Source of the DNA: a virus
Virus record (IMG/VR): IMGVR_UViG_3300045988_140506
Reading direction: 5' to 3' (one strand)
DNA: 34,851 nucleotides
A model generated the notes under the pieces. The model was not told where the DNA came from. It was given only the letters and a program-made list of their open reading frames with translations, and made no database searches. Position numbers and translations under genes: made by a program. Of the stretch, positions 1 through 34,851 are shown in pieces; position 1 is the stretch's first letter; every line of letters starts with the position of its first letter.

Positions 1-119
1 AAAGCCCCTCGTTGCTTGTCTGCTCGACTTCGTATTTGTAAGGTATTGAGGTTGTCGGCACGGTGTCACGGATAACCGTTATAGAGCCGTTCGCCTTGTT
101 TTGAGCCTTTACGTCGCCC
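1..119. repeat. Exact copy of 34733..34851, the end overlap of a circular or terminally redundant molecule
   Basis: Bases 1-119 read identically to 34733-34851 when the two ends are compared base by base. The implied unit length is 34,732 bp. Confidence 0.95.
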
Positions 120-1477
120 TCGTCAGTTAAATACATTTTGACTGAAGTGTTTACGGTTATATCGGTGTCGGAAATGGTGTATGTGTGTAACGTAACAGTA
201 GAATTTGACAATCCCGAAAACGTGTATGTCGAACCGCCGCTACCGTGGTCAGCATAAAAAATATTTCCTTGTTTATCTAAATAGATATTAAACTTAAATC
301 CAGTTACTGCCTTATAACTTATCTCCATATATTGTTCATTGCCGACAGTCACCATAGCGGTTACAGCGTCATAAACTTTATTATCTCCCAAAAGTTTTAT
401 TTTCCAACCTTGCAATACTCCATAATATTTCGCATCTATGGTTTGAGAATATATTTTATTTGTTTCGGTTAGTGTTGTGCTTTGTATAACGGATATGTTT
501 TTAGTTAGTAAATTTTGGACAATTATTTCGTTCCAACCCGTTGTCGGCAACTCCCCGCTTACTTTCTTATAAGTAACGGGTAAACTCGTCGGAATAGTCG
601 GTATGTCACTTGCTGTTATAAACCCACTATCGTTCGTCAGTTCGCTTGTCTTTGTGGGGACATTCGGCACATAGTGATTTACCAGCGTAAACTGTCCGCT
701 TGCGTTCGTCTGCTTGACCTTGTAGGTGTACGGGATAGGCTGTGTCGGCACGGTGTCGCGTATGACTGTGATTTTTCCGCTTTCAAGGGCTTGCGCTTTC
801 ACTCCGCCGTCGTCCGTGAGTTCCATAAGAACGTCGCTGTTGGGGGTTATGGAAGTGTCGGAGATGGTGTAGAATTGTTGCGAAATGGTCGATGTTCCAA
901 TACGAGTATAAGTAACGGCGTGCGCCGAACTTGCGAAAGTGTCACCTTTTCCGTACATTTTTCCATCTCTTGAAATGAAAATCGTCGGATTGTCAACCTG
1001 ATAATTTTTTCGGAAAGATATGCCAGTCATATCATTTACCGTGGCACTGCTATTTTTGTCCTTGAACGCAACATTATTATTTGTATAATCACCGTAATAG
1101 GAATAGTTATAATCTACTACCATATATGCGGTATCGTCGGAATATAAAATATCTGCAAGTTCTTTTGAAGTTCCAAGAAATGTATATGACGACGGACACC
1201 TGACACTTCCTTCCCAAAAAGTTTGGAAACCTGTTTTCTCCCACCCGCTTGTAGGCAAGTTCCCGCTCTTCAACACACTCGCTTCTTGCGGTAATGCTTC
1301 GGGAGCAGCACCGCCAGCGGGGGAATAAGTTTTCCCCCCGTCGGTCGACACACTGAAAACACCGTCTTTCTCGACAATGTCGGTTACTTGTTTCATAGTC
1401 CCTTCGGTTGCGGGCGAAGAAACATTTTTGTAAACCTTTCCGTTTTTCCTTATTTCGCTTTGAGTTAATTGTTTCAT
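1..1477 (-). CDS. Modular receptor-binding / tail-fibre-like protein, N-terminal 492 codons. The gene crosses the circular junction and ends at 34362, for about 615 aa in total.
   Basis: ATG at 1477-1475 is preceded by AGGAGATAAG (1481-1490). The minus-strand frame stays open down to base 1 and is in frame with listed ORF 34362..34793. It is missing from the ORF track because it runs off the window edge. It lies directly after the giant tail proteins. Confidence 0.75.
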   Translation of the reverse strand, partial: MKQLTQSEIRKNGKVYKNVSSPATEGTMKQVTDIVEKDGVFSVSTDGGKTYSPAGGAAPEALPQEASVLKSGNLPTSGWEKTGFQTFWEGSVRCPSSYTFLGTSKELADILYSDDTAYMVVDYNYSYYGDYTNNNVAFKDKNSSATVNDMTGISFRKNYQVDNPTIFISRDGKMYGKGDTFASSAHAVTYTRIGTSTISQQFYTISDTSITPNSDVLMELTDDGGVKAQALESGKITVIRDTVPTQPIPYTYKVKQTNASGQFTLVNHYVPNVPTKTSELTNDSGFITASDIPTIPTSLPVTYKKVSGELPTTGWNEIIVQNLLTKNISVIQSTTLTETNKIYSQTIDAKYYGVLQGWKIKLLGDNKVYDAVTAMVTVGNEQYMEISYKAVTGFKFNIYLDKQGNIFYADHGSGGSTYTFSGLSNSTVTLHTYTISDTDITVNTSVKMYLTDEGDVKAQNKANGSITVIRDTVPTTSIPYKYEVEQTSNEGL

Positions 1478-4400: not shown

Positions 4401-6114
4401 CTAAATTGAACGTTGACGGATAAACAGCGTTTGAATACACGTTTATCGTAGTTTCCGTGCTTTCGGTCGTGATAACATCTAACGACTTCGTGAAAGTGTC
4501 GCCAGCGTTTGCTTTTAGACTGTTGTTCCCTAACGCCAAATAAATAGACGATATTTCAACGAGTGTCGGAGTGTCCGCCGCAAGTGCGATTTCGTTCGTA
4601 AGTTCAGCCGACAACAAAGTTTCCGCTTGCCCTACTTTCTTGACCTTTGTCGTAAGCCTGAATTGCACCGAGCATTTTCTATTCGCGCTAACCCAAATTG
4701 CCGAACGGTCGGTCGAGTTCTTTGTAAAGTTGTAGTTGCCAGTCAAAACTCTGTCAATCGAAAACACGTTTGCCGTGCCGATTGCGTTCACCGTCTTTGT
4801 GAATTGAATACCGCTTGCAGGAGTGGTCGGCACATTTTCAACAAAACCGTCAGCCGAATAATAGTAAATATTCGTATAAGTAATAGGAAGATACTTGCTA
4901 TCGCTTTCGGACTTCGTGTAAACGTCGCTTTGCTTCGCGTAAGTCAAGTTTATAACATTGCCGAGTTGGTCTTGTAATGCTTTTGTGGATATTCCGACAA
5001 CTTGCGTGCCGTTGACAATGTTAGTCTGCAAAACGTCAATCAGATTAATTTTCGTTTGGATATTTCTGTAAACGCCCTCATTGTCTTTGTAATAGACGTT
5101 TTTAATCTCGCCGCCCGTTATATCGACCAACACGTTATTTGTCGAGTTTATGCCGAACGTGCCTTTAATCACGCCCAAACTTCCGTTGCTTGCTTGTTCG
5201 ATAGGCGGTATTTCAAAACTGTTCCATTTGTTGTTGTCGCCGTAAATGTATTTGTAGTTTTTGTCCGTCGCTCCGACTATTTCAAGCACAAAGATAATGC
5301 TATCGTTCGGTTTCGGGTTTCTCCCAAGTTCCGACAGGGTAAACGCCGAAAGTTCGTCGTTCGTGGGAAGTGTCGTTCCTTTCATAGTTCCGACAGGCGT
5401 TTCAGCACCCGACACCGTGTTTTCAAGCGTAGTTACCCTCGACTGCAAATCGCTTATGTTTGTGGTATTGCTTGAAATGTTTGCGGTGTTCTCGTCCGTA
5501 TGTCCGTCAACTTCGTTTATCGCCCCGACAACAGTCTTATCGTCGGTAGTAAGGGTATCGTCCGTCTTGTCTTGTTTTAACGGCAAAGTTGCGTTAATAG
5601 CCTGCACTTGCGCGTTCAAGTTTTCGAGTTCGCTCGGCTCAACATCTTCGTCTTTGTCAAGGTTAGTGCTTGCCATAACGTCTAAATGACAAGTTTGGCT
5701 CGTAATGACCGAAAGAACGACAGGCGTTTCCGCTTCCGTGTCGATATTCACCACATTGACAATCAAAACAGGAGAGTTTTCGCCTTGCCCAGCATAAAAA
5801 GTAAACTCTTTCGGCAACTTTCTTTCGTACAATGCGTATTCCACGCCCTTATAGACAAGCGTTTTAAGATAGCGCATATAATAGTTTTTGCTGACCTTAA
5901 TCGCACCGTCCCTTGCCGTGTAGGTCATACCTATTTTCACCGACGTTGCGGCGACATAGGAAGAAGATTGCGACGAAAATTCAGGCGCAAGTATGCTTGT
6001 AGGAACGAAAATGTTTAAGAGTTTGTTTTGAAATTGCCCTTGATACAAGGGGAAATCTTTTTGCAAATCGGCAATTCTGCCACTTTCTGCTAAATAAATC
6101 TTAATCGTATTCAT
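1489..6114 (-). CDS. Giant tail fibre / tail-associated structural protein (about 1541 aa)
   Basis: This is listed ORF 1489..6192. I prefer the internal ATG at 6114 (MNTIKIYL...), which has GAGG 9 nt upstream and a hairpin plus TATAAT between it and the previous gene. The N-terminal third has a coiled-coil-like NISSNTTNISDLQSRVTTLENTV segment. The rest is Thr/Asn/Gly-rich and looks beta-rich, like phage fibres. The function is not proven. Confidence 0.7.
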   Translation of the reverse strand: MNTIKIYLAESGRIADLQKDFPLYQGQFQNKLLNIFVPTSILAPEFSSQSSSYVAATSVKIGMTYTARDGAIKVSKNYYMRYLKTLVYKGVEYALYERKLPKEFTFYAGQGENSPVLIVNVVNIDTEAETPVVLSVITSQTCHLDVMASTNLDKDEDVEPSELENLNAQVQAINATLPLKQDKTDDTLTTDDKTVVGAINEVDGHTDENTANISSNTTNISDLQSRVTTLENTVSGAETPVGTMKGTTLPTNDELSAFTLSELGRNPKPNDSIIFVLEIVGATDKNYKYIYGDNNKWNSFEIPPIEQASNGSLGVIKGTFGINSTNNVLVDITGGEIKNVYYKDNEGVYRNIQTKINLIDVLQTNIVNGTQVVGISTKALQDQLGNVINLTYAKQSDVYTKSESDSKYLPITYTNIYYYSADGFVENVPTTPASGIQFTKTVNAIGTANVFSIDRVLTGNYNFTKNSTDRSAIWVSANRKCSVQFRLTTKVKKVGQAETLLSAELTNEIALAADTPTLVEISSIYLALGNNSLKANAGDTFTKSLDVITTESTETTINVYSNAVYPSTFNLVAQSITFDVNTLNGMKSINVLTTDWTANTDGTFSTTIPQTRHQQAPNTNYFIDLQELVAANTYERIAFSAKIDTDGNITLTTTEKLDCVLLIASSITDEERGILTLTNPVALPAIDYTTFGALRIEQTETATALTLPAPADVGKFATFFVSNSATSTKEISINGEDISINSGMQFKWNGSQWQVGEQPTDTDEVYDKDKSQLLSKTLQDMQSATSNNSAALKSKLDDDLGNVDLTGLGEKVFDCNLNKSIYRETSTGVDLTSLEYDGQYNISLVFDFTADNQTITQNIPQALNSTIDIRLALQQGSTYHTGCKVVLTPVNGATINGTASTVELTADGYNGTLKPDTDGHWLFDRIGEVAAIKVSDGTTDIETAKLVADSASGLEVYKDGANTAGLRIKPAILAKTAADNFYAKLNGSEYINFNGIDGKIWAGDIEASGSSYVYAEKNTKSVICQAIGDDTETAFSIKFVADFGDVEAQSDGYVSIYAQDNATGTILTDDNGKPLGVKEYFKTGDKITRLVAYGIKTFSSMVKVGFVVENGFNEVLELTQDTCYSIQSLQVGKQVSAGDNAFDIATGLRWDKQFRYYYNDLLSLDWLKNETVAEQTLADGFYNYNDGLHVDVTGTLKFSVANGNIKLSDDGSNIVFCAFGRVFDRIDTANLKGKTLNVAFKGENKNNAWDMRLLIYTGANAGVFDSKIVTGITDGNLTLASGWTQVSSIFITEDVSGEHEVSGTFAIPTTAFDRMAIVITPNAQQNPNSITIKDFNASLATGFTDRELILGTTVREEHLRYDRTYAKFEDNNQGYAQIRYTINSGATKLPFGEKTSGNGAIKLVKIWQDNAKLTGEGGLNFTNKDKVTMRVRIPLHRGEGATGVETTTFAIYRRSAGTDTEDIASPTNFDIANFAEIAGTSQAFVVEGTDTVYINYVTSFTLNKNGETIILVGKTTHNDGSYIDITTKTPLITNIQGIEIV

Positions 6115-6147
6115 TGCTTTAACCTCGTTAAATATACTTTTATTTAT

Positions 6148-6153
6148 ATTATA
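6148..6153 (-). promoter_or_regulatory. TATAAT -10-like hexamer upstream of the 1541-aa gene
   Basis: The minus strand reads GCGTATAATATAA, the same TATAATA(T/A)AA context seen before three other late genes. There is no good -35. Confidence 0.35.
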
Positions 6154-6164
6154 CGCTTTAAGTA

Positions 6165-6189
6165 AGAAAAGGGCAAAACGCCCCTTTCT
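6165..6189 (-). terminator. Hairpin with a U-rich 3' side after the 1200-aa gene
   Basis: Minus-strand RNA reads AGAAAGGGGC-GUUUU-GCCCUUUUCU, about 10 bp including one G.U pair. It overlaps the stop codon of the 1200-aa gene. Confidence 0.45.
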
Positions 6190-9100
6190 CATTGCTTATT
6201 GCTGAATATGTTTTTGTTCGGCGCACCCCATACCCATTTTTTCAATGCTTGCGCTCTCGTAAAGTGTTCGGGAATATTCCTTGCAATGACAAATTGTGTC
6301 TTGTACGGCAAGGGCGGACTTTCCGCGCCCTCGTCGGGGTTAAGCGCAACATCGCATAACAACGCTATCGCCTTAACTCTTTGATAGCCATCGGTATTGA
6401 CAAAATGATTGTCCGAAACATTTGCGAACACCGTTTCAAGGTCTATGCCAAACTTTGTAACGACTGTCTTGTTGCCGTTCAAGGGGTTTGTAGCCGTCGC
6501 GGACTTGTCAATCGCATAGGTAAAATACTTGTTAAGTTGCGTTCCGTCTTTGCCCATAGGCGGTATAATAACGCTATTATCAACATACCCCGAAGAAAGT
6601 TTGTTCACTTCTTCGGAAAGCAATACCAACCGCAAATTCGACTTTTTCGGCAAGTACACATAAGGCGACAAAACGAACGTGTCGCTATTCGTAATCATTT
6701 GCAAGTTGTAGTTGACCGAAATTGCTTCTCGGCAGTCTTTCAACAAACCTATTCCGCGCCCGTTAAAGTTTGTGTCGAACGCCTTAACATTTGTTGCGAG
6801 AACATCATATTTGCCGACAAACTTATCAGCCGTGTTGTCCTTTGTTGTGATAGGACTTTCGGGGAAAGCCATTGTTTCAGTGGGCGTAGGCACTCCAATA
6901 CTCCCCAAAATGTAGAAGTCCAATAAAGCCGCGCGTCCGTAAATATCGGTGTATTTGACCGCCCACATTGAATTGTACGCCCCCTTGCTCAACACTGCCG
7001 TTGAACTGTCTATTTTAGGCGACACAATGACCTTATCGCCAGCGGAATAGTTGTCCGCCATGTCGTATTCGTAGGTCAATGTAGTTTCGCTTGAATAGGC
7101 GTTTATCGGGTTTATAACTTCAAGATACAAGTCGCTTTGCCCAACGGTTTGGTCGTAAACACCCGTGTCCTTATCGCCCTTGAAAACTGTTACGGCGTAC
7201 TTCGCAAAGTCCGTTCCCGCGCCAGCGACAAGGCTCGCCAAATGGTCGTAGTTGAATACATAGTTTGAGCCAAAAGACAAGTCGTTTTCGTCATCGGTTA
7301 ATAGCAACAAGTCATTGATAGCAAATTCGCGCCAAATAAGACTTTGTTCGCTAATCTCGTAAAATCTCGGCTCGCTCGGAATACCTATGATATTGCTTAA
7401 TTCGTTGTAGTCCTTGCTATAAGACACTTTGCTGATAATGCACGAGTGCATAATTGTATGCGTTACTTTCGCCACATAATAGAGTTCTCCGTCAATGCGG
7501 TAGAGTTCGCCCTTATGCTTTACATCTGCCCAGTTGTCGTGCCATTCGTAAATGTCATACGAGTTGTTACCCGTCCTTATGAGTTTGCCGAACATTTGAT
7601 TACCAAACTTTATGCTATCGACAACAACGTCCGTTTGGTTGTTAAACTGATTGTGTTCGGGGTATCTATCCCATTTAGAATTTAGCAAATATTTGCGTAA
7701 GTCGGGACGGATATGGTTTTGGCGCACGCTGTCTTTCGTCCTATACCGCACAAAGAACGAATAATCGTTGACTTTTAAGGTCGTCCATTCGCCAGAAGTC
7801 GGCGCAGGGTTTACGGGGTTGTACCCGTTGAACGCACAATAGATGACCTTTTTTATCGCATAGTCCGAATAAATGTTTGGTGTTTTTTGCGGCAGTTGAT
7901 AGTCGCCACCAGCGATTATGTTCGTGCCGAGTTTATAATACAGCGCAATGCCCCTATTCGGCACAACGTCAAAGTCGATAGAAAGCGTTTTGTAAACATT
8001 TTCTTCGTAAATGTAGTCGGTCATATCGGCGATTGCCCCGTCACTGTTGCGCCTAACTTTTATGCTCATAAGTTCTATGATAGGCTTTGACACGATAATT
8101 TCCGCTGTATCGTTCGACACCAAAAGTTGCTCGTGCGTTGTTTTCGGCGACACCCATTCTTCTATGTAGCCGCCCAACTGTACCATATTCGTTATGTACG
8201 AAGAAGTCGCGCAAATGTAGTCCTCAACACTTCGGCTATTAAACAAAGAAGTCTTTGTGCTTGGTTTAACTTGCTCGTCCGTGCGCCCCAAACGATTGAA
8301 AGTAATCATATACTTGTCGTTGTCGCCGAATTTCAGTTCGGGTATTGCGTGTATGTAATTCCCAACTTCTACCATAATTTCCCAAAGGTTCTTTTGGTTA
8401 TAGAAGTTTTCGATAATTTGCGTCGCGGCAAGTTCGTCCCTAAAATTATCGTCAATGTAAAACGGTATGTCCGAATTGTTTACGTCGGCAATGTACGCCC
8501 CGTCTTTCTTTTCGTAAAGCCCCGAATTCACTATCGCTTTTTGCAATAAAGCAAGCGCAGAATACGGCGTGGACGACGAATAAACTATCTTCTTGCTATC
8601 AACACTATATGTTACGAACTCCGCCTTTCCGCTCGTGTTTTGCGCGGTCATATAAAGGTTATTGTTATTTACCTTACCATCTTCAATAGATATGGTATAT
8701 TCTTGATAGAAAGTAGGTTGTTCGCCAGTATATTTTCTTCTTTCCCCACCAGAAATTGGAACATTGGGCAACTCATCGTCGAATTGATGTAACGAAACGG
8801 TTAGTTCATACCGACAGTCTTTTTTTATGTCGAAAAAGTCCGTAAGATAAGAAGACGCTGTTGGAGCAGGCGCGGACTTATCCGTGTATTTTTTGTAATC
8901 AACAAATATGTCGCCAGGAGTTCCTGGTATCGTTTCGCACCGTTCGAGCAGCCATTCCCCGTTTATAATGTTTTGATAGTCCGCACCAACATCGGTCACC
9001 CACGATGTGCCTAAATTCGAGTTTGAAATGACTGTTTTTGTCCACTGCCTTGTAGGCGTTTCAGAGTTAAGGTTGTATTCTCTTATAACATAATCAACGG

Positions 9101-19932: not shown

Positions 19933-19949
19933 CTCTGCCTCCTATTCTT

Positions 19950-19966
19950 ATTATACACCTTTTTAG
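19950..19966 (-). promoter_or_regulatory. Late promoter candidate before terS (CTAAAAAGGTGTATAAT)
   Basis: A TATAAT hexamer is preceded by AAAAAGGTG. This resembles the spacer plus -10 of the duplicated early promoter (TAAAAAGGGTGTATGAT), but there is no TTGACA-like -35. Confidence 0.45.
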
Positions 19967-20179
19967 AAAATATAGGTCTCGGGAAAATTAGCCCCCCATA
20001 ATCTCCGTTCTCCCGTTCGGGGGGGTAGGGGGTGCGTCCTACAATGCCCTACAATCGACCAAAATATACGGGTTGATAAAATACTTGACTTTGATATAAA
20101 AATCGGTTTTAGCCCCGTTCTACGCCGTCAAATGGGCAAATGCGCCATAATAGACGGGTTCACGGTGTCGGCGGCGGTC

Positions 20180-20201
20180 TGTGTACGTATGCGCGCGCGT
20201 G
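20180..20201. repeat. Perfectly alternating purine-pyrimidine tract TGTGTACGTATGCGCGCGCGTG (left bracket of the iteron array)
   Basis: Read directly from the sequence: 22 nt of strict Pu/Py alternation including (GC)4. Confidence 0.9.
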
Positions 20202-20204
20202 AGG

Positions 20205-20480
20205 GCTTGTTTAGAAAACAAAACAGGCTTTCTTTACTACGATAAAGCGTTAAACCGTTCTCTGCTGTTTAGAAAACAAAACAGGCTTACTTCTGTCCGC
20301 CGCCTGTTTAGTACGATAAAGCAATAAATCATTGGCTTTGTTTAGAAAACTAAACAATTTAGCGCACTAAATCAACAAAGTGTCTATCGTCTTGCTTTAC
20401 TACGTTAAAGTGAAAAAGCGTTGTTTAGAAAACTAAACTCGTTCTTATTCTTCTACAAAAGCCTGTAATAGTACTAAACA
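20205..20480. repeat. Array of two interleaved classes of palindromic sites (iterons or operators)
   Basis: A-type sites (TGTTTAG-AAAA-C(A/T)AAAC) lie at 20205-20228, 20264-20286, 20338-20357 and 20421-20438. A-type half-sites lie at 20305-20311 and 20474-20480. B-type sites (CTTTA(C/G)TACG(A/T)TAAAG) lie at 20232-20247, 20306-20321 and 20395-20410. Confidence 0.85.
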
Positions 20481-20497
20481 CGTACACGCGCGCACGT
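20478..20497. repeat. Perfectly alternating purine-pyrimidine tract ACACGTACACGCGCGCACGT (right bracket of the iteron array)
   Basis: Read directly from the sequence. It has the same GTAC...GCGCGC layout as 20180-20201. Confidence 0.9.
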
Positions 20498-20504
20498 TAG
20501 CCCG

Positions 20505-20632
20505 TTCTTTTTCTTCTTTGCTTTTCTTATCCGAAAAACTCTTTTTTTCTTTTTCATTCTTTCTTTATATATTTCTTTCTTCTTTTTCTTTTTTTCTGAA
20601 AAGCATAATTCTTTTCTTTTTTTCTTTTTCTT
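20505..20632. repeat. Polypyrimidine (plus strand) / polypurine (minus strand) tract built of TTCTTTTT-like units
   Basis: About 128 bp is almost entirely T and C on the plus strand. It is interrupted only at roughly 20531-20540 and 20596-20610. Confidence 0.9.
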
Positions 20633-20777
20633 AAAAAAAGCAAGTACTAGTAATATGCTTATAGTTTTATCTTACAGTTAGTGCTTCTAATAAATAAATA
20701 AATAATAAAAATAAGCATAGAGAGATAAGAATAGGGTATATAACAAGGTAGAAAAGAAAGAGGCGAAAAAAGGCGCG

Positions 20778-20800
20778 AAAAAAGGGCTTTTTCAGCCCTT
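20778..20800 (-). terminator. Rho-independent terminator ending the early / GC-rich-island transcript
   Basis: Minus-strand RNA reads AAGGGCU-GAAAA-AGCCCUU followed by UUUU. It lies 22 nt after the stop at 20823. Confidence 0.75.
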
Positions 20801-20822
20801 TATAAATATATATGTTTTGATT

Positions 20823-21111: not shown

Positions 21112-21441
21112 TTAATCTCTAAATCTGTAAACGGGTTCGGCGATTTCGTTTTCAATCGAAATCTCTTCGGGATAGTCCCATTCGGTATTCTCCGACCATT
21201 GCCCGACGGTCGCGCCCGCGCCGTCAATAACGCCATAAATCGCGGGTTTAATGAGTTCAAACGCTATCGTTTCGACGCGCCCGCTATCGCTGCGCCTGCC
21301 TGTTTCTACTTCAAAATCTGCGCTTCCGTATGTGCCGTCGCACTCGCTCGCCCACGTTTCTGCCTCGTCAAGGGTTTCACACGGGCTAAAACCGTTTTTT
21401 TCGCACCATTTTACAAAAGTTTTCGGGTTTGTTAATTTCAT
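21112..21441 (-). CDS. Strongly acidic 109-aa protein, function unknown
   Basis: AAAGGAGTTTTGAGAA lies before ATG 21441. By my count there are about 23 Asp/Glu against 10 Lys/Arg. The coding sequence is GC-rich. Confidence 0.65.
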   Translation of the reverse strand: MKLTNPKTFVKWCEKNGFSPCETLDEAETWASECDGTYGSADFEVETGRRSDSGRVETIAFELIKPAIYGVIDGAGATVGQWSENTEWDYPEEISIENEIAEPVYRFRD

Positions 21442-21546: not shown

Positions 21547-22197
21547 TTAGTCGCGCCATTTCAAGCCCTCAACCGCGATTTCGTTTAATTCGTGCGCTTT
21601 TGCGCTCGCAACGTCAAATGCCTTGCGGGTTTCGGCGGTCAGTCGCTCGATTTTATTCAAGTATTTTTCGATATTATCGATATACTTATTAGGGTTTGTG
21701 ATTTCCGCGACAGCTTCGGCGTGAATTGCGTTGTTTTCGTCAACGATTTTCGCGCGGTTTTTCGTCCAGCACTCCACGCCGCGTCCGTATGCTCCGCGCT
21801 CGCTGATGTTGATACTATCTTTTATTTGTGTAAGATAATTAGTCGAAAAATAAAACGAAAACCCTTTTTCGCGCATTTCGTCGCGGATTTTCTCGGCAGT
21901 TCTCTCGCCGTGCTTTTTGCCGTCGTATTTTTTCAAAACTTCCGCAAGGGCTTTTTTACCCGTTTCAACAAGTACATAATTATAATTATTACTTAGTACT
22001 TTGCCGCGTGCGCTTATGCGCTCGGCTTCTTTTTGTAACGTTTCAATTCTAAGCGACGTAAGCCGCGCCGCGTCGCGGTCGCCTGCCTTATGTGCGGCGA
22101 TAAAAGCGGCGTTGACGTTGTTGCGCTCTGCGCTCTTTGCGCGTTTGGCGTCCTGAGTTGTTTCAATTTCCTTTTTAATTTCTTGTAATGTTTTCAT
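21547..22197 (-). CDS. Hypothetical Ala/Arg/Lys-rich helical protein (216 aa; an alternative upstream in-frame start gives 254 aa)
   Basis: Listed as 21547..22311. The ATG at 22197 has AAAGGAGTAAAAAAA upstream. The upstream in-frame ATGs have poor SD context. The coding sequence is GC-rich. Confidence 0.6.
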   Translation of the reverse strand: MKTLQEIKKEIETTQDAKRAKSAERNNVNAAFIAAHKAGDRDAARLTSLRIETLQKEAERISARGKVLSNNYNYVLVETGKKALAEVLKKYDGKKHGERTAEKIRDEMREKGFSFYFSTNYLTQIKDSINISERGAYGRGVECWTKNRAKIVDENNAIHAEAVAEITNPNKYIDNIEKYLNKIERLTAETRKAFDVASAKAHELNEIAVEGLKWRD

Positions 22198-22364
22198 TTT
22201 TTTTACTCCTTTTGCGGGCTTACCGCCCTTGTTTTGTTGCCTTAATCTTATCACGGCGTCAACAATTTTGCAATACTTTGTCCATCCTTTTTTCATATAT
22301 CCACATATCAAAAAGGATATACTCTCCCCCGTCCCCTAATATTAAGGCACCCCCTTTTTGCTTT

Positions 22365-27577: not shown

Positions 27578-27760
27578 TCATTGAGTGCATTTTTCAAGTT
27601 CGTTTTCGTATCTGTGCCGTGCCTTTTCTTCGGTGTAGTAGATAGCGGTGTAAAGTTGGTCATCTTCCATAAAATAAACCGCCCACTTACTGTCCCCGAT
27701 TTTCCGAATTGACGGAATTATCAGAATTTGCCTGCCGTCCTTTGTTTTTAGAACGTCCAT
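27578..27760 (-). CDS. Hypothetical protein (60 aa)
   Basis: ATG 27760 has GGGGGTGAGAAAA upstream. The listed start 27769 is a GTG inside that RBS. Confidence 0.5.
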   Translation of the reverse strand: MDVLKTKDGRQILIIPSIRKIGDSKWAVYFMEDDQLYTAIYYTEEKARHRYENELEKCTQ

Positions 27761-28004
27761 TTTTCTCACCCCCTTTCCATTTGTCGAAATAATGATAACA
27801 GTGTATCATTCCCACGCACCCGAATATATCCACAAGTCCGCATTGTGCATACAGAAGATACTTCGTTTGTTGCGCCGTCAAACGCCCTATGCACGCTATA
27901 AGACCTATGTTCGCAACAACTATCAAAGTGATTACAATCGCCGTTCCTAACGCCTGTATCGCCCGATTACGGTATTCTTTCCACTTTTCATCGAAATCAG
28001 TCAT
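27687..28004 (-). CDS. Two-TM small membrane protein (105 aa)
   Basis: The first hydrophobic stretch is LGTAIVITLIVVANIGLIACIG and a second lies near CGLVDIFGCVGMI. There is a TAATG overlap with the upstream gene. The basic, low-complexity C-terminal 25 aa overlaps the next gene by 74 nt. Confidence 0.5.
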   Translation of the reverse strand: MTDFDEKWKEYRNRAIQALGTAIVITLIVVANIGLIACIGRLTAQQTKYLLYAQCGLVDIFGCVGMIHCYHYFDKWKGGEKNGRSKNKGRQANSDNSVNSENRGQ

Positions 28005-31697: not shown

Positions 31698-31865
31698 ATG
31701 AACGAAAATGTAATTGTTACCGACAAGAAAAAAATCGAAGAAATAAAACAAGCCCTGCAATCGACGGAGAGTTCTTTTGAAGAGATAAAGTCCGCCGAAC
31801 GTGATAAATTGCCCGAAAACGCAAAAAATGTTTGGTTTGGTATTGACAAGGCGAAAAAACCGTGA
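31698..31865 (+). CDS. 55-aa Lys/Glu-rich protein, the only plus-strand gene candidate
   Basis: The sequence is MNENVIVTDKKKIEEIKQALQSTESSFEEIKSAERDKLPENAKNVWFGIDKAKKP. It is not in the track because it is under 60 aa. Its composition resembles the real proteins here. There is no SD, which is consistent with leaderless translation. The competing minus-strand ORFs run across the duplicated promoter. Confidence 0.4.
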   Translation: MNENVIVTDKKKIEEIKQALQSTESSFEEIKSAERDKLPENAKNVWFGIDKAKKP

Positions 31866-31923: not shown

Positions 31924-31945
31924 GCCCCCGACGAAAGCCGAGGGT
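31924..31945. terminator. Hairpin between the convergent 347-aa gene and the plus-strand unit (possibly bidirectional)
   Basis: Minus-strand RNA reads CCCUCGGC-UUUC-GUCGGGGG (8 bp, two G.U pairs) and is followed by a weak CUUUAUCU. On the plus strand the stem has two mismatches but is followed by UUUUGUCUUU. Confidence 0.45.
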
Positions 31946-31952
31946 TTTGTCT

Positions 31953-32996
31953 TTAATTAGCGGACATTTTTTCCGCTTCGATATCGATTGTAGATGAAAC
32001 AAGTTTCCCGACGAACGCGCCAGGCTTTACGGGTAGACCGCTCCCGAACGTGTCGTCAAAAGTCCGTTTGACAGGGTTGTTCGATTTTTCTTTCGCCCTT
32101 TCGACTTCCAAATCTTTGATGACTTCCACGTCCAAATTCGCCACGCCGTTGACCTTGTTGTTCATCTTATACCTGAATTGCGAAAAGATTTTTAACTTGC
32201 GTTTCAGAGTAATTTTCTTTCGTTCGTTCATTGCACAACCGAAACAAATTCCTGAATAGAGCGAAATTAAAATCGTCACGCATTGAAAGATAATCGGGAT
32301 AATCATTGCTCTGTTAAAGTCGTTCCACGAGTATAATAATTGCCCTGTAAAACCACCGAACGCGGCGAGTGATAAAATTTTCCATAACAGTTTTTTGAAG
32401 CCGTAACGAACCTTATGTGAGTTCAAATCTTCTTCATCTTCGTTTGGTGAAATGTCTACTGTTCCGCTAACCATTTGACTGTAATTGATACGGTGAAACG
32501 ACACATATTGTCCGCTTTCCCAAAGTTCGTCAGCCGTAACGGTCAAGGCTTTGTTTATGCGTTCAAGTCTTTCTGGCGTTCCCCACTTCTTAAACCTGCT
32601 TGCAAAGCGCAATTTCTTTTTCCACTTATAAATATAGTTCTTATATTTGTTCGCTTTGTTCAAGTTTTCAATGTAGGTTTCGAGGTCAGCGGTTTCAGAG
32701 TTTTTCATAATCGTCTGATAATGACCATTGAGCGCGTTAAGACGGTCGATTAAATCATTGTCTTTTATAAGCATAATGTTTTCCGTAACGTTCGCTATGG
32801 ATACCATAAGCACAAAGGTTGCGACCGCCATTACAGATTTTTGTATCCAAAAAACCTTTCCTGATACTTCGGTTTCAATGCCGTTGAAAATGAAAAAGTT
32901 TGTCAAAATCAACGCACCAGCGATACACATAGCAATCGCCGAGTTTATCGTTATTCGACTGCCAACAAGTGCCACTCTTTTCTTTTCGACGTTCAT
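31953..32996 (-). CDS. Four-TM membrane protein with a central ~125-aa soluble domain (347 aa)
   Basis: Hydrophobic helices lie near aa 17-40, 52-72, 207-227 and 238-260. There is an ATGA overlap with the upstream gene. No family was recognised. Confidence 0.7.
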   Translation of the reverse strand: MNVEKKRVALVGSRITINSAIAMCIAGALILTNFFIFNGIETEVSGKVFWIQKSVMAVATFVLMVSIANVTENIMLIKDNDLIDRLNALNGHYQTIMKNSETADLETYIENLNKANKYKNYIYKWKKKLRFASRFKKWGTPERLERINKALTVTADELWESGQYVSFHRINYSQMVSGTVDISPNEDEEDLNSHKVRYGFKKLLWKILSLAAFGGFTGQLLYSWNDFNRAMIIPIIFQCVTILISLYSGICFGCAMNERKKITLKRKLKIFSQFRYKMNNKVNGVANLDVEVIKDLEVERAKEKSNNPVKRTFDDTFGSGLPVKPGAFVGKLVSSTIDIEAEKMSAN

Positions 32997-33493
32997 TTGC
33001 TTTCACCCCCAACAGTTGCCGCTTCCCTTAAACTTGTCGTAATGCAATGCAAGGATACTTTCCCGAACACGCTCGCGGCAATGATTTCGATGATGAGTTC
33101 CAACTTTTCTATCGCATTCTGAAAAGCCGACAAAACCGCCAACGCCATTAAAAGATAAAACATAATCGGTATGTAGCGGATATTCGACACAATCTTTTCT
33201 TCTTTCGCCACGGTCTTTACAAGCAACTCCGACGGGTTTTCCGTAACCTTTAAGTCCGCTTTGTGCTGGTAATAACCTTTAAGATACTCGTCATATTTTT
33301 GCTTAAAAATGCCGTAGATTATCGCACATAAAATTGCAAGGCTTATGAGTGTCCAAAAAAAGCCTTTCGAGTTCGCACTCATCGTATATTGCAATGTATC
33401 TGTGTACGAATAAATCGCATACCCAGCAGTCGGCGCAATAAGCACAATGTACTCCAAAATAGCGGATAAAATACTTTTATAGTTCCGTTTCAT
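32993..33493 (-). CDS. Multi-TM membrane protein (166 aa)
   Basis: There are three to four hydrophobic helices (ILSAILEYIVLIAPTAGYAIY, FFWTLISLAILCAIIYGIF, YIPIMFYLLMALAVLSAF). AAGGGGGTATGAT lies before the ATG. Confidence 0.7.
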   Translation of the reverse strand: MKRNYKSILSAILEYIVLIAPTAGYAIYSYTDTLQYTMSANSKGFFWTLISLAILCAIIYGIFKQKYDEYLKGYYQHKADLKVTENPSELLVKTVAKEEKIVSNIRYIPIMFYLLMALAVLSAFQNAIEKLELIIEIIAASVFGKVSLHCITTSLREAATVGGESK

Positions 33494-33504
33494 ATCATAC
33501 CCCC

Positions 33505-34017
33505 TTAATACAAGGGCGTATTTTCGTTCTCCGCCACTTTTTCAATCTTGACGATAGGTTTATCGACCGAGGGCGTTTCGACCGCTACAAGCCCGTTTTC
33601 AAGGTCTTTCATACTCTCTTTGAGTTCGTCCCTTGCCGAGGTTGATATGGTCTTAAAGTCCGACACGGCACTTGCGATTGCTTTTTGCGATTTGACAAGT
33701 TGTTTGCAAGTCTTTACGAGTTCGGCGTTGATGTTCTCAACTGCTTGAAGACGGTTGCGTGTCGCTTTTTCGATTTCGGAAGTCATATCAATTTCGATAC
33801 TGCCGTTGGTCTTTTCAACAATAGCGTTAGCGATTGCTTGATAATCCGAGTTCGAGAGTTTGACGGGCTTTTTTCGTGCGACAAAAGTCGTGATAATTTT
33901 CGCAATGCCCGCAAGTCCGCCAAGAGCCGTGAACGCCGCCATAAGCCATTTACCGCCCACTGCCGCAATGTTGCGAAGTTGGTCGATTTGTTCTGCCGTA
34001 AGTGATAAACTATACAT
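33505..34017 (-). CDS. Single-TM protein with a long helical C-terminal domain (170 aa); the holin-like architecture is only a guess
   Basis: The TM helix is WLMAAFTALGGLAGIAKIITTFV, followed by ARKKP and about 120 aa of helical sequence. AAAGGAGTATTAT lies before the ATG. Confidence 0.65.
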   Translation of the reverse strand: MYSLSLTAEQIDQLRNIAAVGGKWLMAAFTALGGLAGIAKIITTFVARKKPVKLSNSDYQAIANAIVEKTNGSIEIDMTSEIEKATRNRLQAVENINAELVKTCKQLVKSQKAIASAVSDFKTISTSARDELKESMKDLENGLVAVETPSVDKPIVKIEKVAENENTPLY

Positions 34018-34083
34018 ATAATACTCCTTTGCCCGTGCCGTTGCTACCCGACGAGAGCGTTAAGATTTTTAAGCGGTAGCACG

Positions 34084-34347
34084 CTAAAATTCGCCTTGTT
34101 CGACTGCATTGAATAAGTTCGCAATGTCGTCCGTGTGTTTGTTTACGACTTCGACAAGTTGATTTACCTTGTCTTTGAGTTCGGCAAGTTCTGCAATCAA
34201 TCTTTGCGTGTCGTCTAAACTTTCAGCCTTAATTTCAAAACAGACTATGTCCAGCCCTTTGCATTGTTTTGTAGTGTTGTCAAAATGTTCGCAAGTGATA
34301 CAGTCTGCACTTGTTTTTATGCGTTTAAGATTTTTGTTGTATAACAT
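34084..34347 (-). CDS. Hypothetical 87-aa protein (Cys-rich N-terminus, coiled-coil C-terminus)
   Basis: AAAAGGGAGAACGAAA lies before ATG 34347. The motif is CITCEHFDNTTKQC. It lies immediately after the receptor-binding-type gene. Confidence 0.6.
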   Translation of the reverse strand: MLYNKNLKRIKTSADCITCEHFDNTTKQCKGLDIVCFEIKAESLDDTQRLIAELAELKDKVNQLVEVVNKHTDDIANLFNAVEQGEF

Positions 34348-34361
34348 TTTCGTTCTCCCTT

Positions 34362-34851
34362 TTAATTAGTTATTTTACGATATTTGAAAGATTGATTTTC
34401 GGTTCCAACTTCTGTAATAGTCCCGCCGCTCTTTATTTGTGACGTTGTTTGACTTATAGTCAATATTCCGCCACCGCCGCCGTCAAGTGGTTCAACTTTT
34501 ATGCGATACGTATAAATATTCAAGTTGCCGCTAACAACTGTGGCGACTGACCACGATTGACAGTTTATAGTAAACGTTTCTTTCCCATTATAATCTATGA
34601 TATAAACCGCGCCCTCGGCATAATTAGAAGCCTGCCCATACAATATTTCATATCGTCCAGCGGTTATTCCTACTGTTTGAACAGAACTGCTCCACTTGCC
34701 AGCACTTGGCACATAACTGTTTATGACCTCGAAAAGCCCCTCGTTGCTTGTCTGCTCGACTTCGTATTTGTAAGGTATTGAGGTTGTCGGCACGGTGTCA
34801 CGGATAACCGTTATAGAGCCGTTCGCCTTGTTTTGAGCCTTTACGTCGCCC
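34362..34851 (-). CDS. C-terminal part of the modular receptor-binding / tail-fibre-like protein (same gene as 1..1477)
   Basis: This is listed ORF 34362..34793, and the frame stays open up to the window end. It is in frame with 1477..1 across the 119-bp overlap. The stop is TAA at 34362-34364. Confidence 0.75.
   Translation of the reverse strand, partial: GDVKAQNKANGSITVIRDTVPTTSIPYKYEVEQTSNEGLFEVINSYVPSAGKWSSSVQTVGITAGRYEILYGQASNYAEGAVYIIDYNGKETFTINCQSWSVATVVSGNLNIYTYRIKVEPLDGGGGGILTISQTTSQIKSGGTITEVGTENQSFKYRKITN
34733..34851. repeat. Exact copy of 1..119 (end overlap)
   Basis: Same comparison as for 1..119. Confidence 0.95.

Follow-up and report, generated by a model that had tools for sequence, protein, structure and literature searches.

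Three conserved membrane proteins in the probable lysis slot of Clostridia phages without a recognizable endolysin

At the end of its late region, the virus genome of IMG/VR record IMGVR_UViG_3300045988_140506 (34,851 nucleotides, analyzed at full length and called the window below) carries four genes for proteins of 87, 170, 166 and 347 residues, here p87, p170, p166 and p347. The last three encode membrane proteins and are referred to as the trio. We find that the trio is a conserved, mobile unit located where a lysis cassette would be expected, that its proteins are absent from Pfam, PHROGs, NCBIfam and PADLOC, and that profile searches recognize no endolysin in the genome. The reading that we favor, with a probability of about one half, is that the trio is a holin-type membrane lysis module of a new family, a function that its position suggests. 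The elements of the cluster are:

34084..34347, minus strand: p87, soluble, 87 residues, with an N-terminal Cys4 motif (zinc-ribbon-like) and a C-terminal coiled coil; variable accessory gene before the trio
33505..34017, minus strand: p170, first trio member, with one N-terminal transmembrane (TM) segment and then a helical domain
32993..33493, minus strand: p166, second trio member, with four TM segments; the most holin-like of the three
31953..32996, minus strand: p347, third trio member, with two TM segments, a helical soluble domain, two further TM segments and a tail
31925..31944, unstranded: G+C-rich hairpin 9 nt past the p347 stop, likely the terminator of the late transcript

An earlier note on this DNA, made by eye, had described four unrecognized proteins, the last two coupled by an ATGA overlap and the whole cluster closed by a hairpin. 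All of this was confirmed. Each open reading frame (ORF) is preceded by a Firmicute-type Shine-Dalgarno (SD) sequence (GGGAG for p87, AAGGAG for p170, AAGGGGG for p166 and GGGGGTGA for p347), and the gaps measure 14 nt between the upstream fiber gene and p87, 66 nt between p87 and p170, 11 nt between p170 and p166, and -4 nt between p166 and p347, where the ATGA overlap can be read directly in the sequence. The stem of the hairpin, found by a terminator scan and checked in the sequence, has eight pairs, six of which are G-C. It is invariant in 10 aligned relatives except for one inserted loop base, and its flanks vary.

In temperate Firmicute phages, the holin and endolysin genes usually lie after the fiber genes and before the integration module. 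The note had called the position of the cluster the canonical holin and endolysin slot, and comparison with relatives strongly supports that the trio occupies a lysis-cassette slot. The genes upstream of the trio are always fiber or receptor-binding genes (in the relatives, Pfam BppL_N/Mtd_N, DUF6273, Gp53-like_C, Phage_fiber_rpt and BspA LRR), with a phi29 gp9-like tail knob further upstream in one lineage. Downstream, there are three arrangements. The window and locus L061 continue with the early/replication module. A second type has variable accessory genes (HicAB, SocA antitoxin, an AAA_21 ATPase pair, an IS transposase), which are followed by the integration module. In the third type, the integration module comes directly after the trio and is represented by a tyrosine integrase in L058 and L059, a serine recombinase with Bro-N and a repressor in L065, and ImmA in L053. 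The trio is thus the last late unit before the integrase or repressor genes of temperate relatives. On the contig L057, which belongs to a metagenome-assembled genome (MAG), the prophage ends after the trio and cellular genes follow, and on the Christensenella sp. UBA6880 contig L009 the gene spoVAD lies ~3 kb downstream of the trio.

The strongest single evidence for the lysis function of this slot is a recognized holin at the same place in a sister lineage. Three relatives, L048 to L050, of which L048 and L049 are near-identical, have no trio, and their large terminase subunit (TerL) is ~71-72%, their portal ~71% and their capsid protein 63-65% identical to those of the window. In L049, the fibers are followed by a small ferritin-like protein, a 119-residue protein with one TM segment that matches Phage_holin_6_1 (Holin_LLH) with 26.6 bits against a gathering threshold of 24.9 (E 8e-6), a 202-residue protein with three C-terminal TM segments, and a 174-residue soluble protein with no informative Pfam match. 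On the opposite strand, inspection by eye suggests a 437-residue integrase-like gene and a gene for an HTH repressor-like protein. The slot of L050 (18192-22260) contains a GT2 glycosyltransferase (E 8e-15), unrelated multi-TM proteins and an AgrB-like protein (E 2e-7), and hence the slot tolerates wholesale replacement by other sets of membrane proteins. Profile-profile comparison (hhalign) of p170, p166 and p347 with the L049 and L050 cassette proteins revealed no relation. For p170 and the L049 Holin_LLH protein, the probability was 0.5% and the alignment was confined to the TM segment. The cassettes that replace the trio are thus not homologous to it.

We gathered 68 loci (cited by L numbers) from metagenomes, IMG/VR and GTDB genomes. 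Locus retrieval made use of a subgroup alignment, and the trio was scored in 64 of the loci and in the window with hidden Markov models (HMMs) derived from the three family alignments. In 44 of these 65 sequences, p170, p166 and p347 are adjacent and in the same order. A further 13 have p170 and p166 followed by a third protein of ~305-317 residues with 3-4 TM segments and a similar size and layout. When the L046 and L051 types of this protein were compared with the p347 profile by hhalign, homology was not detectable (probability 2-12%). The remaining eight comprise three loci that end before the slot, two with the p347-family gene only (L026, which starts at this gene, and L030, which has different neighbors) and the three loci with another cassette described above.

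Lineages whose trio proteins have diverged to 15-20% identity yet keep the unit, and gene overlaps within the trio are also kept among relatives. Between the window and L040, L043 and L044, the trio proteins are 81-87% identical, next to 92% for TerL, 93% for the portal, 90% for the major capsid protein, 73% for the 1200-residue tail protein and 65% for the N-terminus of the 1567-residue protein. By these identities, the trio appears to be as conserved as core genes. Furthermore, phages of ~53 kb carry it at 83-88% identity, and BLAST detects no similarity of their portal- and capsid-sized genes to those of the window. Hence, the trio moves as a module between unrelated backbones, together with fiber segments. 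Prophage copies were found in Clostridia and Christensenella MAG contigs.

The architecture that the note had given for the four proteins held up. The four cysteines of p87 (C16, C19, C29 and C36) all lie near its N-terminus, by residue 36, and its C-terminal half is coiled-coil-like. The family matches of p87 in Pfam, PHROGs, NCBIfam and PADLOC are weak and all below cut-off. The small protein at this position is variable: most relatives have a 157-residue protein, the C-terminus of which is 33-45% identical to the C-terminal half of p87, and L042, L045 and L046 have Cys-rich proteins of 58-62 residues, which match the Cys-rich half of p87. p170 has a single hydrophobic segment in the hydropathy profile (approximately residues 24-47), followed by the basic stretch ARKKPVK and a helical domain of ~120 residues. 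Its family profile finds 297 clusters at 90% identity, none of them named; among the 120 clusters listed, there is one Pfam entry (PF13286 in P0147), which is unrelated. p166 has a basic N-terminus and four hydrophobic segments, with a charged loop of ~40-45 residues between the second and the third. Its homologues fall into 15 clusters, none with a Pfam domain, and in the family alignment relatives at 14-23% identity keep the plan of a basic N-terminus, two TM segments, a charged loop and two TM segments. The C-terminal tail is Lys-rich in most members of the p166 family, and the tails of p170 and p347 are acidic or neutral.

p347 has two N-terminal TM segments by hydropathy and one clear TM segment on the C-terminal side. 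That it consists of two TM pairs around a soluble domain, as the note had it, is supported by the helices of its AlphaFold2 model. A model made with only six close homologues had a pLDDT of 49 and was discarded. The run with 56 sequences, which we used, gave an all-alpha model with a pLDDT of 88.2 and a pTM of 0.81. Its long helices span residues 2-38, 47-78, 195-220 and 229-279, with shorter helices between them and in the tail; a helical soluble domain lies between residues 80 and 176, and the helical tail has ~90 residues. Foldseek, a check that the note had proposed, found no significant match of this model in the PDB (best E 0.099, TM-score at most 0.2). The long-helix look-alikes at the top of that search were considered and set aside: a bestrophin homologue was the best of them (E 0.099, TM-score ~0.12-0.16, not significant), and subunits of the SmhB/AhlB/Hbl-B tripartite alpha-pore-forming toxins, F-BAR domains and ABC transmembrane domains came with E up to 1.8 and probabilities of at most 0.21. 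In BFVD, the model matched four uncharacterized phage or viral proteins (probability 1.0, TM-score 0.40-0.61), which are presumably members of the p347 family.

This family is sparse at the level of close similarity. A word-indexed search of 5.8 billion proteins returned only six clusters of p347 homologues; a profile search of 1.84 billion representatives returned 70 proteins (at 50% identity) of 260-420 residues with the same layout of two TM segments, a soluble domain and two TM segments. W50, N113, K117 and F274 are the only near-invariant residues of the family and do not form a catalytic constellation. There is no consistent Pfam family among the 56 members, one of which has a sub-threshold match to Phage_holin_3_6 (E 0.0098), and sequence and profile searches of the PDB with the family were empty.

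One of the readings offered by the note was a lysin too divergent to read by eye. Such an enzyme might be hidden in the cluster itself, for example in the soluble domain of p347, in p170 or in p87. The p347 domain (~125 residues) could be thought to have such a role in view of several acidic and His residues that are conserved among close homologues. In the wider family, however, near-invariance is limited to the four residues named above. A confident all-alpha model of long helices, with no match to a lysozyme, transglycosylase or peptidase in the PDB, means that p347 is not a hydrolase. By the positive-inside rule, the soluble parts of p170, p166 (the loop between its second and third TM segments) and p347 (N-terminus, central domain and tail) are predicted to be cytoplasmic. 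The p170 soluble part and the C-terminal half of p87 look coiled-coil-like (from weak sub-threshold family matches), and the small upstream protein is not conserved. With an all-alpha p347, few invariant residues and soluble parts predicted to be cytoplasmic, the cluster contains no plausible extracytoplasmic hydrolase, and we regard an enzyme hidden there as very improbable.

The search for a lysin elsewhere in the genome was similarly negative. The Pfam scan covered all ~45 ORFs of at least 60 residues on the coding strand, and the PHROGs scan covered 38 of these, including the four cluster proteins and 32 of the other ORFs. Neither found a lysin or holin family, and muralytic domains (amidase_2/3/5, GH25, CHAP/NlpC-P60, M15/M23, SLT and glucosaminidase) were found in none of the window ORFs; the families that were found belong to packaging, portal, replication, recombination and regulation only. 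The impression of the note that no peptidoglycan hydrolase is recognizable is therefore borne out at the level of profile HMMs, and neither a standard endolysin domain nor a standard holin family, which it had named as grounds for giving up its view, came to light. No match above threshold in Pfam, PHROGs, NCBIfam or PADLOC was obtained with any of the four cluster proteins. Even at E up to 1, PHROGs returned nothing for p166 and p347, the PADLOC matches of the four proteins are at chance level only (E of at least 0.0033, below 15 bits), and neither the four proteins nor their L031 homologues match a described holin family (Pfam Phage_holin_*, TIGR/NCBIfam or PHROG). Precomputed Pfam tables for ~24.7 kb of the same phage contain no lysin or holin match, not even a faint one, in the tail genes or the cluster. 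PDB sequence searches with the 1567-, 1200- and 254-residue proteins returned nothing. In precomputed Pfam annotations of ~20 trio neighborhoods (up to 10 kb on each side) from at least eight lineages, no lysin or holin domain was found. A 105-residue early-region protein far from the late operon (window 27687-28004, minus strand) has two TM segments and a long charged, Lys/Arg/Asn-rich C-tail. It is class-II-holin-like by these features, is 78-86% identical over its full length in 14 relatives, and matched no holin family in the Pfam/PHROG batch scans.

Elsewhere in the genome, an enzyme may lie beyond the reach of profile HMMs. It is only a little short of an even bet that the phage encodes a normal muralytic enzyme of an undescribed or very divergent family outside the cluster, for example in an unannotated early ORF or as a domain of the 1200-, 1567- or 365-residue tail proteins, and that the trio is its holin-type partner. 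Such an enzyme is compatible with the trio as a lysis module and would remove the most surprising element of that reading. The clade is beyond HMM reach for many families: all 10 structural proteins that were scanned, including the capsid-size one, have no Pfam match, and tblastn with the capsid protein finds nothing in 50,697 GenBank phage records. The same tblastn search with p347, p166 and five distant p347-family members gave no match, nor did blastn searches of GenBank phages with the DNA of the cluster and of the head region, and therefore no annotated isolate could serve as a guide. Among predicted metagenomic lysins, 43% have no match to known lysin domains (PhaLP 2.0 preprint, bioRxiv 10.64898/2025.12.08.692814). 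In addition, the cassettes of L048 to L050 contain a conserved soluble protein of 174-226 residues (L049 18539-19063, L048 18428-18952, L050 20221-20901), which in L049 and L050 lies exactly at the endolysin position. Its N-terminal domain of ~95 residues is joined by an acidic linker to a C-terminal coiled coil, and it could be a lysin of an undescribed kind or a regulator of lysis. No endolysin is recognizable in the L049 slot.

Set against a divergent enzyme are the negative searches above, which extend to the ~20 neighborhoods, and the location, as an endolysin away from the lysis slot would be unusual. Furthermore, soluble neighbors of the trio are not universal (L042, L045 and L046 have only the 58-62-residue protein), and the 174-residue protein of L049 has no homologue in the window.

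The note had also considered that the trio might be something other than a lysis device. The trio always adjoins fiber or receptor-binding genes, including ones diversified by a diversity-generating retroelement (DGR), and is exchanged together with them, which would suit a superinfection-exclusion, receptor-masking or membrane-acting defense or counter-defense module carried along with them. Late regions may also end, beside the integrase, in genes for exclusion or conversion, of which the three-gene gtrABC clusters are an example, and the L050 slot with its glycosyltransferase and AgrB-like membrane protein would fit this explanation. However, the trio has no PADLOC match, its proteins contain no GtrA-like or Glycos_transf_2 (GT2) domain by Pfam and NCBIfam, and the all-helical p347 has no enzyme-like fold. 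The trio is conserved like a core component across distant lineages, whereas exclusion and defense genes are typically sporadic, and the variable accessory genes (HicAB, SocA, AAA_21) come after it. It is also kept in the window phage, where no integrase was found, and its place in L048 and L049 is taken by a bona fide holin. Hence, this explanation is weakened, and we consider it unlikely.

A membrane complex with another late function, namely an anchor for virion or fiber assembly or for packaging, or a packaged channel for DNA entry, seems to us more improbable still. It draws on the ~53-kb phages, where the trio lies between structural blocks: a portal-sized 681-residue gene and fibers upstream, and a capsid-sized 400-residue gene and giant proteins downstream, roles that only their size and order suggest. 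The large cytoplasmic helical domains predicted for p170 and p347 are more scaffold-like than pore-like, and the weak structural resemblances of p347 are only to helical membrane-remodeling or pore proteins. On the other hand, four strongly hydrophobic TM helices are unlikely in virion components, and in most lineages the trio stands apart from the head and tail genes. The holin in the same slot of L048 and L049 also speaks against such a role, as does the lack of homology to ejection or assembly proteins in Pfam and PHROGs.

If the trio is indeed a holin-type lysis module, it might work as follows. The three proteins would be made late, from the same transcript as the fiber genes, and would accumulate together in the cytoplasmic membrane. 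p166, which has four TM segments and probably both termini in the cytoplasm, and whose tail is basic in the majority of its homologues, would be the holin-like core that forms the lesion. p170 and p347 would be its obligate partners, which would scaffold the lesion or time it in the manner of an antiholin or regulator. The variable coiled-coil protein encoded upstream (p87, or the 157-residue protein of most relatives) may dock on their cytoplasmic domains. As no hydrolase is recognizable, breakdown of the wall would need either a divergent phage enzyme encoded outside the cluster or host autolysins, which might be released from control once the membrane potential collapses. Of the two, a phage enzyme beyond HMM recognition is more likely a priori. 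Exploitation of autolysins after depolarization has partial precedents in pneumococcal and Bacillus systems.

We are doubtful of the more radical version, in which this Clostridia-phage clade has no muralytic enzyme of its own and lyses its hosts by the three-protein membrane complex alone. The complex would then collapse the membrane potential and thereby unleash autolysins, or block a membrane step of wall synthesis. A wall-less (Mollicutes-like) host, for which a phage would need no endolysin, was considered and rejected: the ORFs are intact under code 11, the SD sites are strong and the G+C content is 43%, and prophage copies occur in Clostridia and Christensenella MAG contigs, one of them near spoVAD.

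p170 and p166, with one and four TM segments, are small membrane proteins with at least one TM segment, as holins are defined. Several points nevertheless weigh against assigning the trio to lysis. p347, with its 347 residues and large cytoplasmic domains, is far from a typical holin, and the C-tail of p166 in the window is weakly charged (net +1 in its final 25 residues). Pfam, PHROGs and NCBIfam place none of the three proteins in a known holin family, and the defining partner of a holin, an adjacent endolysin, was found neither in the window nor in the ~20 trio neighborhoods. To our knowledge, a lysis cassette without a muralytic enzyme is unprecedented among tailed phages of walled hosts. 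The negative HMM results are themselves weakened by the structural proteins without Pfam matches and by the absence of a GenBank phage relative. Finally, the position of the trio is suggestive but not proof, as genes for lysogenic conversion and exclusion are also found at the ends of late operons.

The window is a circular assembly. Positions 1-119 are an exact duplicate of positions 34733-34851, and 119 bp is the k-mer size of the assembler according to the public contig name k119_318130. The window is therefore circularly closed, and removal of the terminal overlap yields a genome of 34,732 bp. The ENA contig ERZ27229628:k119_318130 matches the window exactly in length and gene content, and the same four cluster genes are called there. 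The phage was assembled on five public contigs, in which a fiber-like gene for 615 residues is called too. This gene spans the junction of the window and is missed by any ORF list made from the linear sequence:

1..1477, minus strand: 5' part of the gene for the 615-residue fiber/receptor-binding-like protein, which continues across the junction into 34851..34362
34362..34851, minus strand: 3' part of the same gene; positions 34733-34851 duplicate 1-119

When the overlap is taken out and the ends are joined, a single ORF of 1848 nt results. Its product has no Pfam match, and its N-terminal motif recurs in fiber genes of relatives. The note was thus correct to place the cluster after a receptor-binding gene, with the amendment that this gene is the 615-residue fiber-like one that wraps around the window ends.

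All long ORFs of the window are on the minus strand. In coding-strand order, the genes for the small and large terminase subunits, the portal, a scaffold-like protein and a 417-residue capsid-size protein are followed by four small proteins, proteins of 365 and 183 residues, and the tail or fiber proteins of 1200, 1567 and 615 residues. The four-gene cluster comes next and is separated by a 470-bp intergenic region from the replication/recombination module. This early module encodes a replisome organizer, a DnaC-like ATPase, a C5 methylase, Sak, SSB, HNH and a sigma-like factor (Pfam/PHROGs), as well as a protein with a GIY-YIG domain that is barely above the Pfam cut-off. The Pfam/PHROGs scans found no integrase among the window ORFs, and there are no tRNAs in the window. 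A Pistol self-cleaving ribozyme (Rfam RF02679, 21463-21539, minus strand), located upstream of the terminase genes between closely spaced ORFs of 254 residues (21547-22311) and 109 residues (21112-21441), matches the full-length model with 48.4 bits against a gathering threshold of 34.5. The ~890 bp upstream of the small terminase gene (19933-20822) contain no ORF longer than 48 residues on either strand and have a strongly negative GC skew. This stretch may be a pac/cos site, an origin or a regulatory region.

The hairpin past p347 is followed by a better T-run on the plus strand, TTTTGTCTTT, and hence may act in both directions. On the same strand, the segment 31843-31955 has a perfect extended sigma-70 promoter (TTGACA and TATAAT separated by 17 nt with TG, 12/12) aimed at the 3' end of p347. 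Both hexamers are kept in 10 relatives, the spacer varies, and the conserved hairpin lies downstream. The implied RNA of ~75-80 nt folds with z = -4.3 and is a candidate small antisense RNA that would overlap the end of the late (putative lysis) transcript. The plus strand also has a 55-residue ORF (31698-31865), which is apparently the sole opposite-strand gene and is convergent with p347. Its product is 67-86% identical over most of its length at the same site in 18 related IMG/VR loci, and the ORF lies back-to-back with a promoter that matches at 11 of 12 positions (31654-31626, minus strand) and is directed toward the replication genes. The protein may be a small regulator at a divergent-promoter switch.

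Several features of the region upstream of the cassette were encountered in the relatives. The ~53-kb phage L001 has a diversity-generating retroelement immediately upstream (5361-8185) with a bAvd accessory protein, an RVT_1 reverse transcriptase and a DUF6273 target; ahead of the trio in L051, L053 and L055-L058, DUF6273 proteins are likewise encoded. A small ferritin/EncFtn-like protein of 71-101 residues precedes the cassette in most relatives (for example, L001 8187-8420, L005 398-658, L009 8118-8414, L049 17255-17560 and L060 1996-2211) and is absent from the window; it has EGEA...Y and E..NH motifs and weak matches to the NCBIfam EncB family and Pfam EncFtn-like. In L009 (DKCG01000041.1, 7051-7959), a 302-residue ORF just upstream of the cassette fuses a fiber-like N-terminus of ~45 residues to a complete triosephosphate isomerase domain (Pfam TIM, E 1.6e-66), which is either an odd metabolic domain in a prophage fiber region or a MAG chimera.

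According to the textbook, tailed phages lyse their hosts with a holin and an endolysin, plus spanins in diderms, and endolysins are treated as universal and mined as enzybiotics. Widespread gut Clostridia phages and prophages instead present three conserved, unannotated membrane proteins in the lysis slot and no recognizable endolysin. They have no cultured relative in the GenBank phage collection that we searched, and a literature search on the trio proteins, on endolysin-free tailed phages and on lysis by Christensenellaceae phages found nothing relevant. If the trio is a lysis device, it would define new holin-type families and a new cassette architecture, and would allow genes in hundreds of metagenomic phages to be annotated. 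Should these phages indeed have no muralytic enzyme of their own, the accepted view of what is minimally required to lyse a walled host would change, and theirs would be the first endolysin-free lysis strategy in Caudoviricetes that infect walled bacteria, here spore-forming Clostridia.

Among known systems, the gtrABC serotype-conversion clusters of temperate phages likewise close the late region with three genes for membrane proteins, beside the integrase. The trio differs from them in having no GtrA-like or GT2 domain, in the soluble domain of p347, which is helical and not of a glycosyltransferase fold, and in its presence also in a phage where no integrase was found. Holin_LLH/Phage_holin_6_1 (PF09682) proteins resemble p170 in having an N-terminal TM segment followed by a helical domain; p170, however, does not match PF09682 and is longer, with a soluble domain predicted to face the cytoplasm.

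Multi-component sets for membrane lysis or its regulation are another parallel: XepA-XhlA-XhlB-XlyA of PBSX, gp24.1/gp26 of SPP1, LydA/B/C/D of P1, the holin-like pairs of mycobacteriophages, and CidAB/LrgAB. In these sets, several co-transcribed membrane proteins act jointly, with an accessory soluble or coiled-coil protein in front (XepA, XhlA), and LrgA/CidA-type holin-like proteins resemble p166 in its four TM segments. However, Pfam and NCBIfam show no sequence relation of the trio to XhlA, LrgA/B or the Phage_holin families, and the known sets accompany a recognizable muralytic enzyme or regulate host hydrolases. The holin-endolysin cassette of temperate Firmicute siphophages (for example, Lactococcus, Streptococcus and Clostridium phages) has one or two membrane proteins, whereas the trio has three, with large cytoplasmic domains in p347 and no endolysin found beside them. 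Nevertheless, the trio occupies the same slot as this cassette, consists of small-to-medium membrane proteins encoded by tightly coupled genes that end at a terminator, and, like the cassette, is exchanged as a module between unrelated phage backbones.

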